This document shows, in pieces, positions 10,443-53,330 of a stretch of DNA of 64,000 nucleotides. Source of the DNA: an uncultured Chlamydiales bacterium (GTDB lineage: Bacteria > Chlamydiota > Chlamydiia > Chlamydiales > JAAKFR01). The notes beneath the pieces were generated by a model. It ran no database searches and was not told the DNA's origin. It worked only from the letters and a program-made list of their open reading frames with translations. Position 1 is the stretch's first letter. The number at the start of each line of letters is the position of its first letter. The position numbers and the translations under genes were made by a program. The DNA is taken from the NCBI GenBank assembly GCA_963699155.1, contig OY969414.1:1803757-1867756 (forward strand), read 5' to 3'.

Positions 10443-13121
10443 ATGCTTGTTCTAATGAATTTATTGGAAAGCCAAACTCAAGAGATTCAGAAGCGTTGTG
10501 AGCGGGTTTTTGCAGAAGAGCTGGGAGCTACCGATGCCACTCAAACGCAAACTCTTCTGATTAAATGGGAATGCTCTCAACAAGCAGCTGGCACATTTGT
10601 CTTTTACCTATTGAGCTTTACAGGTCTCCATCGCAAAGCCAGCCTTTTTCTCGAGGAGATGATTTCCCACTGGCTTCTACCTGAGGCTAATTTGCAGATT
10701 ATCTCTTTCAAAAGCCTCATATTCAACCTTTCTCGATTTCAACAGCCCATCTCTTACATCGAGATCGTAGTCCCTATTTATGAGACAAAAACTGCTAAAC
10801 TCATTCAACTTCAACTGCCTGCGTTTTCCGAAGAGATTAAAAAAGGGACCTCTTCAGTGGAAATTGCTCATCAAATTCTAGAGACAAAGCGCTTTTCGCT
10901 GTCGATTGTGACAGCCCATGAAGATTCTCAGAGCGCTCTCAACCTGAGTTTTGGGTTGTCTTCCTCAGATTCAGAGGAGTTTACGCAGCAAACCTTGGGT
11001 TTTTCGTCCGAAGCAAATGGCCAGGGGCCCTTTGCGAGGACGAAAAGCACAAGGGGTGCAAGTAAACTCCCTGAAGCTGAGGGAGAAAAACCCAAAACTC
11101 AGGTCCATGAGGAGTTGAGCAAATCACCCTCCTTCTCTCTCTTCCTCCCACGCACTGAAGATGAGCTCTTACGTGGCATGATCTCCTTAAGTGGAGAGCT
11201 GAAGCAGCCGGGTGACCCTCCCCAAGTGCTTATCTCGTTCCAGCAGCAGCTTCCTGCTACCCTTAAATTTCAGCTGATTTTATTGAGGGCGCTCAAAGCA
11301 GAGAATGAGCCTCCTCCCCTCACCGAATTCATTCATAAGCTCCCTAGTCACATGCGCTTCATTCCTGAAAAGAGAGCCATTATGGGAAATCTCCAAGGGA
11401 AATTTCTCAAAGAAATGAACCTTTTTACTCTTCAACTCGACAGCAGACTCTTTATGAGGGGTAACCACTCCATCGACCTGCTCAAAGCGCGTCAAACCCT
11501 CTGTCGTGCTCTTGAAAAAATGGTAGGCCCCTTTAAAGACCATAGCGGAACGTTTTTTCATCAAGCGGATAATCGCACAGTGGATCAAATAGAAGCCCTC
11601 TCTTCCCAGAGCCTTAGGCTGCATTTACCGAGAGCAACTCACACTCTCGATCCCAGGGTCGGAGGTTACCGTGTCTCAGGTGTCGTTATCAGGATGCTCT
11701 TTGAAGGACTTTGTCGTGTTAACCCAGAGGGGCAGATTGAACCAGCTTTAGCTCAAACGATCACCCTTTCTCCCGATCAGAAAGAGCTCCTCATCACTCT
11801 GAAAGAGAGCTACTGGTCGAATGGCTCTCCCTTGACAGCCCACGATTTCGCCTATGCCTGGAAGCAGATCCTCGATCCCAAAATTTATTTTCCCTACTGT
11901 TTTTTGTTCTTTTGCATCAAGAATGCGGAAGCTGCGAAGAGAGGAGAGATCTCACTCAGCGAGGTGGGCATCAATGTAAAGGATGATTTGACCCTTGCCA
12001 TCACCCTCGCCTATCCTACACCCTACTTTTTGGAACTCCTAGCTAACTGGATCTTCTCTCCCCTCTGCCGCGAGCTCGAACAGAAACATCCTGGCTGGGC
12101 TTACCACAGCGGGTCTACCCATATCAGCAATGGACCCTTTAAACTCGAACTTTGGAAGATGAATGACGAGCTCCATTTGGTGAAAAATCCCCTTTATTGG
12201 GATGCCCATGAGGTAAAAATAGACTTTATCAAGATCTCAATCATCGATGATGAGGAAAAAGCGATCGAGGAATATCTGAAAGGCAATTTAGATTGGGTGG
12301 GAGACCCTCTCCATAAAATTCCTCCAAAGGCGATTCAACTCCTCAAAGAAAAAAACGAACTCATTACCGACACCTCCTATTACGGCCTCTTTCTCCTGCA
12401 AATGAATCTGCATAAAACCCCCTTTCAGAATGCCAATATTCGCAAGGCGCTTGCCTATGGCACCTCTCGCAAGAAGCTGCTCGAGACACTTCACAGTCAA
12501 GAAGATCTCCCCGCATTTGGATTCACTGCGAAAGAACAACCCTTTCCAAGGGCATTTGTCGATGGGGATCAAGAGCGGGCGATTGTTTTATTTGAAAGAG
12601 GGCTCAGAGAGCTAGGGATGAGCCGAAAAGAGCTTCCCCCACTGATCTTCTCGCATAGCGATCTCGAAGAGCATAGGGTGATCACTTATGCGCTCGCAGA
12701 ACAGTGGAGCTCTCTTTTTGGATTCGAGGTGAAGTATAAAAAGTATCTCTGGAATGGCTATTTCGAGTCGTTATTTCAAGAGGAGCATATGATCGGCGGT
12801 CTTGTCTGGTACCGTCGTTTTGACGATCCTCTCTACTTCTACGAATTCTTTATCTCGCGGCCCTATGCTCTCACATTATCACAGTGGAAAGATGAGGCCT
12901 ACGTAGAGTGGATCAATGCTGCTAAACGAGCGACAGGGCCAGGTGAGAAGGTGCACTCTCTTTTCCAAGCAGAGCAGCTCCTTCTCGATGCCATGCCTGC
13001 AATCCCTCTCTTCTATCAACATTTCCGCTATGTCAAAAACCCCCATCTCGATCGCATGATCCTCTCTAATTGCCAGCAGATCGATTTTCGAAGAGCCTGC
13101 TTTAACAAGGAAGGAAGATGA
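10443..13121 (+). CDS. Peptide ABC transporter substrate-binding protein (family 5) with long N-terminal extra domain and an in-frame palindromic insert
   Basis: C-terminal TLDPR...LFEGL...WSNGSPLTAHDFAYAW...SNGPFKL...KNPLYW. About 390-aa N-terminal extension with no evident signal peptide. Confidence 0.85.
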   Translation: MLVLMNLLESQTQEIQKRCERVFAEELGATDATQTQTLLIKWECSQQAAGTFVFYLLSFTGLHRKASLFLEEMISHWLLPEANLQIISFKSLIFNLSRFQQPISYIEIVVPIYETKTAKLIQLQLPAFSEEIKKGTSSVEIAHQILETKRFSLSIVTAHEDSQSALNLSFGLSSSDSEEFTQQTLGFSSEANGQGPFARTKSTRGASKLPEAEGEKPKTQVHEELSKSPSFSLFLPRTEDELLRGMISLSGELKQPGDPPQVLISFQQQLPATLKFQLILLRALKAENEPPPLTEFIHKLPSHMRFIPEKRAIMGNLQGKFLKEMNLFTLQLDSRLFMRGNHSIDLLKARQTLCRALEKMVGPFKDHSGTFFHQADNRTVDQIEALSSQSLRLHLPRATHTLDPRVGGYRVSGVVIRMLFEGLCRVNPEGQIEPALAQTITLSPDQKELLITLKESYWSNGSPLTAHDFAYAWKQILDPKIYFPYCFLFFCIKNAEAAKRGEISLSEVGINVKDDLTLAITLAYPTPYFLELLANWIFSPLCRELEQKHPGWAYHSGSTHISNGPFKLELWKMNDELHLVKNPLYWDAHEVKIDFIKISIIDDEEKAIEEYLKGNLDWVGDPLHKIPPKAIQLLKEKNELITDTSYYGLFLLQMNLHKTPFQNANIRKALAYGTSRKKLLETLHSQEDLPAFGFTAKEQPFPRAFVDGDQERAIVLFERGLRELGMSRKELPPLIFSHSDLEEHRVITYALAEQWSSLFGFEVKYKKYLWNGYFESLFQEEHMIGGLVWYRRFDDPLYFYEFFISRPYALTLSQWKDEAYVEWINAAKRATGPGEKVHSLFQAEQLLLDAMPAIPLFYQHFRYVKNPHLDRMILSNCQQIDFRRACFNKEGR
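10941..11105 (+). repeat. 165-bp palindromic element located in frame within a CDS
   Basis: Terminal IR acctgagttttggg...cccaaaactcaggt; highly similar to intergenic 48151-48318. Confidence 0.9.
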
Positions 13122-14683
13122 AAACTATCTTAGTATTTGCCTTTCTTGCCTGTGTTTTTAGTTGCAACCATCAAAAACAAAAAATTGAACCCCCTCCTAC
13201 ACCATCTTCCCCACAAATTATCCGTGTCTGCAACCCTGGCGATCTCGCCTCACTCCATCCCCACACGGGGATCGATCTCAACTGTCGCCTCTTCCAAAAA
13301 GCGCTCTTTGAAGGGCTCACCCGCTTAGATCTCTCAGGAAAGCCAGTTTTAGCAGGGGCTGCAGCCCTAGAAATTTCTCCCTCTCAAATAGTTTACACCT
13401 TTACTTTGCGTCCGATGAAATGGACCAATAGTGAGAAAGTGACTGCTCACCATTTTGAAAAAGCGTGGAAAAGTGCCCTCACACCTAACTCCGACTGCCT
13501 AAGAAGCGACCTCTTTTACCTCATCAAAGGGGCTAAACGAGCAAAAATGGGAGAGATTTCCTTAAGAGAGGTGGGAATCTATGCACAGGATGATCAAACT
13601 CTCATCGTGGAACTGGAACATCCCGCACCCTACTTTCTTGAGCTCCTCGCTCATCCCCTCTTTTCTCCTCTTTATGATGAGGAGCCCAGCCCACACGTTT
13701 TTAATGGACCTTTTTTTGTCGCTAGGTGGGATCTTGGCAAGAGCCTCCTCCTCCAGAAAAATTATAGCTACTGGGACTCCTCCCAAGTCCATTTAGATAA
13801 AATCGAAGTCGCCATGGTGGCCGATGCCAACACAGCCCTGATGCTCTATCAAAAAGGGGAAATCGATTGGGCAGGACATCCCTTTACACTTCTTCCAGAT
13901 GATGCGCTTCCTCGACTCAAAGCTAGCCAGGAATTCCACTCTGAACCTATTGACGGGGTCTACTGGCTCTGTTTGAATACAGAAAAAGCACCCCTATCCT
14001 CTGCAAAAATTCGCAAAGCCCTTTCGCTCGCACTTGACCGGGAAGCTCTCGCACATCATCTCCTGTGTGGAGAGACGCCTTGTGAGAGTATCTTGCCTAC
14101 AGGAATGGCCCTTTTAGGAAACTGGGAGCCCTCCGATCACTCTCTCCACTTGGCCCAAAGCCTTTTTGAAGAAGGTCTCGAGGAATTGCATTTAAGAAAA
14201 GAGGATTTTCCCACACTCGAAATCAGCCACAGCGACATGCCCTGGCATAAAAAGCTGTCAGAAGCCATTCAAGAAAGCTGGCACAAGAGTTTTCAGATCG
14301 ATGTCACACTCCACAACTCCGACTGGAACCACTTCTTTGCCAGCTTAGGCGAAAGACGTTTCCAGATCGGTGGCTGCATCTGGTATTCGGTCTACCACGA
14401 CCCCATCTACAACTTAGAATTTTTCAAAGAGAAAAAACATCGCTACAATGCTCCCCAATGGGAAAACATCCATTTTCAAAAGCTCCTCCAGCTTGCAGAG
14501 GGGGAAAGAGATCTCTCCCAACGCCTAGAACATTTGAAAGAAGCGGAGCAGTTGCTGCTTGACGAGATGCCGATCATTCCCTTATTCGTCTATCATGCGA
14601 AGTACCTCAAATCCCCCCACCTCCATGGCCTTGAGGTACTCCCCGCAGGTTATGTCGATTTTAAGTATGCACGGATCGAATGA
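13118..14683 (+). CDS. oppA: Oligopeptide ABC transporter substrate-binding lipoprotein
   Basis: Lipobox VFSC; LFEGLTR, VTAHHFEKAW, FNGPF and EMPIIPLF motifs. Confidence 0.9.
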   Translation: MKTILVFAFLACVFSCNHQKQKIEPPPTPSSPQIIRVCNPGDLASLHPHTGIDLNCRLFQKALFEGLTRLDLSGKPVLAGAAALEISPSQIVYTFTLRPMKWTNSEKVTAHHFEKAWKSALTPNSDCLRSDLFYLIKGAKRAKMGEISLREVGIYAQDDQTLIVELEHPAPYFLELLAHPLFSPLYDEEPSPHVFNGPFFVARWDLGKSLLLQKNYSYWDSSQVHLDKIEVAMVADANTALMLYQKGEIDWAGHPFTLLPDDALPRLKASQEFHSEPIDGVYWLCLNTEKAPLSSAKIRKALSLALDREALAHHLLCGETPCESILPTGMALLGNWEPSDHSLHLAQSLFEEGLEELHLRKEDFPTLEISHSDMPWHKKLSEAIQESWHKSFQIDVTLHNSDWNHFFASLGERRFQIGGCIWYSVYHDPIYNLEFFKEKKHRYNAPQWENIHFQKLLQLAEGERDLSQRLEHLKEAEQLLLDEMPIIPLFVYHAKYLKSPHLHGLEVLPAGYVDFKYARIE

Positions 14684-53164: not shown

Positions 53165-53165
53165 A

Positions 53166-53330
53166 TAGGATTGCGTCCCGCTTTTTCTGTAAATTTGGGG
53201 TAGCGAGGCGGTGTCAGATTGCGAGATTTTTGAGGAAGCGAATAGCCTTGTGCTATTTGTGACGAAAAAAGCGCGCAAGATGCCCGCCGCAGCTCGCCCA
53301 AATTTACAGAAAAAGCTGGATGCAATCCTA
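53166..53330. repeat. 165-bp palindromic element
   Basis: 34-bp near-perfect arms taggattgcgtcccgctttttctgtaaatttggg. ctaaatag is directly repeated at both ends. Confidence 0.88.

Follow-up and report, generated by a model that had tools for sequence, protein, structure and literature searches.

The 64,000-nucleotide stretch analysed here (positions 1,803,757 to 1,867,756 of contig OY969414.1 from an uncultured Chlamydiales bacterium; hereafter the window) carries four complete members and one half member of a family of palindromic elements of about 165 bp. The elements are gene-less type II MITEs (transposable elements of the miniature inverted-repeat class) whose ends match IS982, IS5 and IS701 insertion sequences (ISs), and judging from their sequences they are in all likelihood mobilised in trans by DDE transposases. 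Elements with different ends share an interior plan. The conserved unit is the whole imperfectly paired rod and not its central hairpin (the core) alone, and it is very probably the fold on which selection acts. The window elements, with their cores and target duplications, are the following:

10941-11104, plus strand: family A1 element, IS982-type ends (AACC..GGT)
11010-11037, plus strand: core of this element (GAAG, then an 8-bp stem containing a single T·C mismatch, a 5-nt loop and CGA)
21890-21979, plus strand: left half of a family A3 element with an IS982-type end, stopping in the core loop
31357-31365, plus strand: 9-bp target duplication to the left of the family B element, TCCTAAACT
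31366-31531, minus strand: family B element, IS5-family ends, with its core at 31435-31463 (minus strand)
31532-31540, plus strand: 9-bp target duplication to the right of the family B element, TCCTAAACT (exact)
48152-48317, plus strand: family A1 element, IS982-type ends, asymmetric core at 48221-48248
53161-53168, plus strand: left 8-bp target duplication of the family C element, CTAAATAG, containing the stop codon of 52439-53164
53169-53327, plus strand: family C element, ends GATTG..CAATC, core at 53235-53262
53328-53335, plus strand: right 8-bp target duplication of the family C element, CTAAATAG, containing the stop codon of the minus-strand open reading frame (ORF) ending at 53328

An earlier note, made from the sequence of the window without database searches, had announced these five elements; each was found where the note had placed it, with its limits refined as above.

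The conserved rod, its core and its length

The source genome is a single contig of 2.40 Mb with a G + C content of 47.5%. Of 126 long hairpins detected by an unbiased genome scan, 38 were 159-170 nt long. If lengths were uniform over 55-340, 5.3 would be expected in this interval, and a block-shuffled genome contained no long hairpins, indicating that the length class is not a chance effect. BLAST with 19 seeds gave 74 loci in the source genome, 48 of full length. After exclusion of family M (4 copies, unrelated by BLAST) we counted 44 elements, 159-167 bp long and falling into at least ten end types (A-K), a larger family than the earlier note had claimed. The members of family M, at 1276025, 1513964, 1919887 and 2352218, are imperfect palindromes of 151-160 bp inside a fixed longer repeat context.

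The cores quoted in the note were correct, and the full motif consists of GNAR, an 8-bp stem, a loop of 5-8 nt, the returning stem and YGA. It was present in 29 of the 44 elements; the other 15 had other cores and still kept the imperfect rod. T/A tracts lie on both sides of the core. A core descriptor, drawn up post hoc, matched the genome 35 times, and 25 of these matches lay at most 2 nt from the centre of a catalogued element (controls 1-8). Central identity between the window families was 47-49%, and the DNA folds of the two copies tested had z-scores of -10.9 and -12.6. Rfam gave no match in the window at the gathering score.

Arm mismatches were counted, core excluded, in 46 elements oriented by the core alone; the copies are related and the events are not independent. 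On the core strand, A·G mismatches outnumbered C·T mismatches by 216 to 12, and G·T outnumbered A·C by 110 to 39. A·G exceeded C·T in 45 of the 46 elements and the reverse was seen in none. When private substitutions were counted in 47 copies from six families, they gave A·G 8 versus C·T 14, and G·T 27 versus A·C 16, showing that the A·G excess was not made by decay. The positions were also regular: in a less redundant set of 32 elements, bulges of the left arm clustered at two distances from the core, 21-24 nt with 17 events and 32-35 nt with 26, and G·A pairs in tandem recurred at 2-4, 17-18, 29 and 38-42. By eye, a similar plan was recognised in local families with other cores (D, D2 and F most clearly; E2, G and K less so) and in D-ended elements from records of Patescibacteria, Firmicutes, Verrucomicrobia and Acidobacteria, all of which were oriented by the mismatch bias itself. 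In three single copies (the one at 48152, H and L529) an arm has been rewritten from the opposite arm with sparing of the core; the arms of the 48152 copy now form a near-perfect palindrome around its asymmetric core.

A model of the core (R1) was built from 16 cores of A1 and A2 type (46 nt, arms excluded, A3 left out). In the source genome, where 150 of 1439 candidates were scored, it gave 22 match loci, every one a catalogued element. The earlier note had expected a model trained on one arm type to recover the others. This was borne out for C (4/4), E (5/6), H and, weakly, J (E = 0.03), as well as for A3 (3/3). It was not for I or B (0/5; the window B copy, scored unfiltered, reached 16.5 bits, lower than an unrelated match), nor for D, F, G and K or for cores of the type of the Rickettsia element RPE-1 (RPE-type cores). 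Across 141 genomes of the order, R1 matched in 16, of which 12 belonged to other families, while a DNA query matched none of 32 other-family genomes (a sample partly different from the 141). From its 112 matches 30 loci were listed, and the 24 that remained after omission of 6 training-genome loci were examined. All 24 were located at the centre of an inverted repeat, several with new end types; 20 spanned 157-175 nt, two had a longer span with recognisable ends about 165 nt apart, and two had decayed ends. Covariation of the cores, also foreseen in the note, was found at all 18 pairs when 23 cores of all types were compared, each pair having changed on both sides, and none of 500 shuffles reached this score; with A cores only, 10 of 18 pairs did so. 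A metagenome search with the core pattern returned 50 loci, about half of them chance or contig-end matches and the remainder mostly A-ended.

About 165 bp is the dominant length class, not a rule. A-ended elements of 59, 65, 97, 100, 218, 240, 254 and 327 bp exist. The note had proposed that core and length together are the functional unit; of this, the covarying core stands, whereas conservation extends to the whole rod and the length is only typical (59-327 bp). In the 327-bp form (L180:3277-3603, and L187 of genome G007) a G-type element of about 160 bp is nested in an A1 core, and four end pairs of G007 have the spacing of this form. Genome G015 has at least nine A-ended pairs of 59-61 bp (e.g. 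C11:15542-15601); the single A-ended element of this size that was read (L186, in G007) had no core. These short forms may be deletion products that arose after insertion, or mobile minis. Helical phasing of the length was not evident in the 121 D-ended elements listed (142-172).

The half element at 21890 bears on length as well. It is followed by the first 14 nt (21980-21993) of a 73-nt insert and then by a GC-rich hairpin repeat. The insert lies at the same point of the A3 core loop in four copies and is whole in two; its other copies in the source genome are:

270029-270101
2241485-2241558
about 594250-594308

Because the insertion point is identical in four A3 copies, the resulting 240-bp form may have been mobile at one time.

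Exchanged ends, partners and target duplications

The suggestion of the note that the arms come from different transposon ends was confirmed, with matches to IS982, three IS5 groups and IS701. As in the definition of type II MITEs given in the part of PMC10969869 consulted, the elements are short, have no transposase gene and possess fold-back terminal inverted repeats; the ends of A, B, D, E and H match autonomous ISs and their interiors do not; and A, B, C, I and D show a target duplication typical of the end type. Full-length ISs with matching ends were found for these five end types (A, B, D, E and H), and reading by eye revealed no match of interior and partner beyond the first 20-45 nt.

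The B partner is an IS5-family element at 660321-662954 of the source genome (NF033579, 256 bits; PF13737), which has B-type ends and an 8-9-bp duplication and is interrupted by another IS; a second IS5-family element with the exact B end occurs in genome G007. We take the subgroups concerned to be IS903, ISL2 and IS427, with the B ends presumably of IS903 type. The inverted ends of the element at 660321-662954 are 118 bp long and packed with GC-rich hairpins, and its interrupter is a 1.4-kb multicopy IS. The partners of A and H are IS982 elements of about 1.02 kb from two genomes of the same genus (NF033520, 203 and 185 bits), and those of E are 1.5-kb IS701 elements (NF049999, 289 and 308 bits). 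D partners, located in Nostoc, two viral contigs and genome G006, are two-frame IS5-family elements of 900-922 bp (PF13613 + PF13359), two of them with an AAT duplication; the C-terminal half alone scored 126 on NF033581, below the cut-off of 140.

Among the top 3-30 loci of each search with IS1595, DDE_Tnp_1, IS1380, IS1182-type, IS701 and IS256 transposases, and with a viral-contig pattern, no C partner was present. Neither 40 stretches with unpaired A ends (genomes G007, G015 and G028) nor 79 viral-contig matches contained an autonomous A partner; an IS adjoining one A end of G028 was rejected, as it ends in TGT and is a separate insertion. A plasmid search with a D copy gave only three chance matches. 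Genome G028 also has a further family of about 165 bp (L004:2070-2237, L194:60-228), with CCCGG ends, a 4-bp CTAR duplication and a fully re-paired core; an IS partner of this family was not found.

The length of the target duplication varies with the end type and is 3, 8 or 9 bp. Family B has 9 bp (exact in 3 of 5 copies, recognisable in the other two), and 8 bp is the length for both C (3 of 4 copies, exact or nearly so) and I. A 3-bp duplication was found in 4 of 5 local copies of D, in 101 of the 121 D-ended elements across taxa among the matches listed, and, as an exact one, in 15 of 24 A copies of genome G028, where near-identical A copies are dispersed.

Bodies and ends have been exchanged. 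A3 (IS982 ends) and E (IS701 ends) have 48 central nt in common at 92%. In genome G093 a single body carries either IS5-type or IS982-type ends; the end 16 nt of the two sorts of copies are 38% alike and the central 90 nt 72-79%. Four G-family bodies of 157-164 bp had ends 12-50% and centres 67-81% alike. Conversely, A-ended elements of different families were 69-88% alike at the ends and 52-59% in the centre.

Between divergent genes lie 13 of the 44 local copies, and 2-3 of 44 are in-frame insertions. A role as terminator was rejected, since there was no enrichment between convergent genes (9/44 versus 343/1892 gene pairs). Family F (1013601, 1118286, 1643768, 2015003 and 270990) is inserted at ATG: four of its five copies adjoin start codons, and three lie between abutting co-oriented genes. 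In the window, the element at 10941-11104 occupies codons 167-221, in frame, of a gene (10443-13121) for an 892-aa SBP_bac_5 peptide-binding protein. The peptide it encodes has no TIGR01045 match, and no empty site could be demonstrated, as the linker of the orthologues is longer and unalignable. The 48152-48317 element lies between convergent genes. So does the one at 53169, where both genes are intact because the 8-bp target contains both their stop codons.

Elsewhere in the window, 4043-4458 and 40670-41211 are related gene-free blocks with long GC-rich inverted repeats at their borders, and 60182-62787 is a 2.67-kb multicopy IS with repeated ends and an integrase-core/Mu-transposase C-terminal gene. 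An exact 75-bp tandem duplication lies within an ORF at 15762-15911, and a 42-bp coding tandem repeat at 29837-29996 in an ORF without a Pfam match.

Possible roles of the fold

We lean slightly towards a reading in which the fold acts as single-stranded DNA and new ends are copied across by fold-back synthesis, a scheme drawn from sequence comparison. The transposases of ISs would move the elements in trans via matching ends. An IS end would arrive in one arm, template switching on the folded strand would copy it onto the other, and the resident transposase would amplify the new symmetric element. Purine-purine mismatches would let one strand fold well and weaken the opposite strand, so that a 165-bp palindrome would less readily extrude as a cruciform and be lost.

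An effect on DNA rather than on mRNA is favoured because the core strand showed no preference for the sense orientation (5 sense and 5 antisense in the source genome, hand count; 5 and 10 in G028) and the folding strand was biased to the C-rich replichore strand. The latter held for 25 of 33 copies in the source genome (p=0.005; 13 of 15 for A) and for 20 of 26 in G028, whose local skew calls have a reliability of about 83%. For IS982 elements themselves, the accessible part of a survey (PMC3971601) gives no orientation bias. Thus the lagging-strand template tends not to be the folding strand, which fits a DNA-level effect, at insertion or by loss of the opposite orientation.

Several observations weigh against trans mobilisation of a selected single-stranded fold. 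The replichore bias was not replicated in three other genomes (10 of 17 mostly non-A copies, 3 ambiguous ones dropped), the non-A copies of the source genome gave a non-significant 12 of 18, and the direction of the bias is opposite to that predicted for a lagging-template substrate and could reflect loss. Double changes in the cores are also produced by arm-to-arm copying, and these sequences themselves had served to derive the structure; covariation alone is therefore not proof. Some A-ended elements (59-100 bp) and cyanobacterial D-ended MITEs have no core, so these transposases do not in general need the fold. RPE-type arms have no G·T excess (50 versus 48 among the matches listed). The partners of A, D and E were not found in the source genome, and IS searches found none for C, F, G, I or K. 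No clear duplication was seen for E (0/6), F (0/5), G (0/3) or K, nor at either A1 copy of the window (10941-11104 and 48152-48317), and among the 11 local A copies an exact 3-bp duplication was limited to 4.

The strongest competitor, though on balance rather unlikely, is that the fold of the MITE is selected as RNA: in the transcribed rod, G·A pairs and bulges would tune cutting by RNase III or serve as a protein-binding site, so that insertions are tolerated or the transposase is more easily recruited. The excess of G·T over A·C on the core strand (110 versus 39) and the two bulges about 11 bp apart agree with this, and ERIC, YPAL and Correia elements affect mRNA stability according to the part of PMC2229807 consulted. 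However, the transcribed strand is not preferred in co-oriented contexts, A·G mismatches are twice as frequent as G·T, no GNRA or UNCG loop of four bases occurs among the listed type I core loops, divergent genes flank 13 of the 44 local copies, and Rfam was silent.

Improbable, in our view, is that the asymmetries have no positive function and are ancestral mismatches left unerased by repair or conversion, kept since perfect 165-bp palindromes are deleted. Arm rewriting does occur (48152, H, L529); in these few cases the perfected copies are single and the amplified groups asymmetric, and avoidance of the lagging-strand template in two genomes is what loss of stable hairpins predicts. Yet any mismatch would break a palindrome, whereas the same strand is purine-rich in 45 of 46 elements and in all 25 RPE-type elements among the matches listed, and mismatch positions are fixed while the intervening pairs turn over.

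We consider it very unlikely that the interior serves as duplex DNA, as a bend or a host-protein site (IHF/HU type) joining ends 165 bp apart, whichever DDE transposase acts on them. A tight length class across end types and the T/A tracts beside the core would suit such a role, but it is the pairing that is conserved and not the sequence (47-49%, as above), and the 121 D-ended elements listed spread over 142-172 without clear helical steps. HUH-type enzymes read strand-specific hairpins with unpaired bases, which is what a core that is its own small mobile hairpin, moved by such an enzyme (Y1/RAYT-like) and landed separately in the MITEs of many IS families, would require; this is barely credible given that no core is free-standing (22/22 in the source genome and 24/24 examined elsewhere are at element centres) and that the arms share the plan as well.

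The single-stranded, fold-back reading can be widened, as a tentative idea that we would not yet expect to hold, into a cross-phylum superfamily including RPE-1. A structured single-stranded chassis would then be the selfish unit. Through fold-back copying it would capture the ends of active DDE ISs, and transposases of IS5, IS982 and IS701 type or a host factor would read its G·A pairs and bulges directly. If this is true, double-strand transposases are able to move a folded single strand or a cruciform.

RPE-1 and other known systems

A pattern made from the local D ends alone found at least 121 loci in many phyla. One D-ended copy, from a Rickettsia endosymbiont, encodes a peptide that reaches 75 bits on TIGR01045, where the cut-off is 30. 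A relaxed core was present in 29 of the 121 D-ended matches listed, centrally in 25, against 2.8 in shuffles; the likeness to the centre of RPE-1, which the earlier note had proposed, is thus real. Among the matches listed, the arms of these 25 RPE-type elements had A·G 139 versus C·T 18, with the bias in 25 of 25, while core and rod were mostly absent from cyanobacterial D-ended elements. Of 69 RPE-type cores in two genomes of Tisiphia and one of Legionella, 20 were examined; about half of these had D-like ends 141-148 bp apart, and several had other ends and about 120-128 bp, so end exchange recurs in RPE-type elements without a constant length.

Local family D has the same 11-bp ends as RPE-1 and the same 3-bp duplication. 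The central GNAR-stem-YGA core and the A·G strand bias are common to both systems, and in-frame insertion is possible in both. RPE-1, however, measures 143-145 bp with a 5-bp core stem, whereas the elements described here measure 159-167 bp with an 8-bp stem. The window copies (159-166 bp) have other ends, those of RPE-1 recurring locally in family D only, and encode no RPE1 peptide; the best TIGR01045 score in the source genome was 12.4 bits against the cut-off of 30. The window elements, as judged from their sequences, are not members of RPE-1 yet share its plan. The part of PMC2229807 consulted reports 19 intragenic insertions of RPE-1 in R. conorii, compared with 2-3 in-frame among 44 here. 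In the excerpts consulted, a 2008 review gave the duplication of RPE as unknown and named no IS. The present data tie RPE-1 to an IS5-family element of about 920 bp with matching ends and a 3-bp duplication, a partner that ISfinder could already note. Movement of RPE-like palindromes thereby becomes directly testable, and the structural signature finds relatives that sequence search misses.

Integron attC sites, the ends of IS200/IS605 and REP/RAYT are strand-specific single-stranded DNA hairpins which, like the present elements, conserve structure over sequence, carry unpaired bases on one strand and have an orientation bias relative to replication. Their readers are tyrosine recombinases or HUH enzymes. 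In the present elements, in contrast, the ends and duplications are of DDE transposase type, and solo cores of the REP/RAYT kind were not seen. With YPAL/RU-2 of Yersinia (about 168 bp), as described in the part of PMC2229807 consulted, the elements share the length class, the palindromic form and recent mobility; YPAL, compared by description only, has internal repeats and variable duplications of 3-26 bp.

The closest relatives in kind are type II MITEs, which are likewise gene-less, with IS-like terminal repeats, a target duplication and likely mobilisation in trans. Partnered examples in the parts consulted are RUP with IS630-Spn1 (PMC2229807) and, using IS982 ends as family A does, MITECca01 of Cardinium (PMC9769881). 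As described in the consulted parts of PMC10969869, PMC2229807 and PMC9769881, each of these is tied to one parent IS, from which it derives. The literature searched, which mostly excluded subscription journals, held no description of a fold common to several IS-end families, nor of the present elements. MITEs are usually explained as shrunken copies of a single parent IS. Here, instead, the interior plan is common to elements with the ends of IS982, IS701 and three IS5 groups, and the ends have been exchanged. The interior seems to predate each of its sets of ends, the transposase partner changing across IS families while the fold and, in these genomes, the length are precisely kept.

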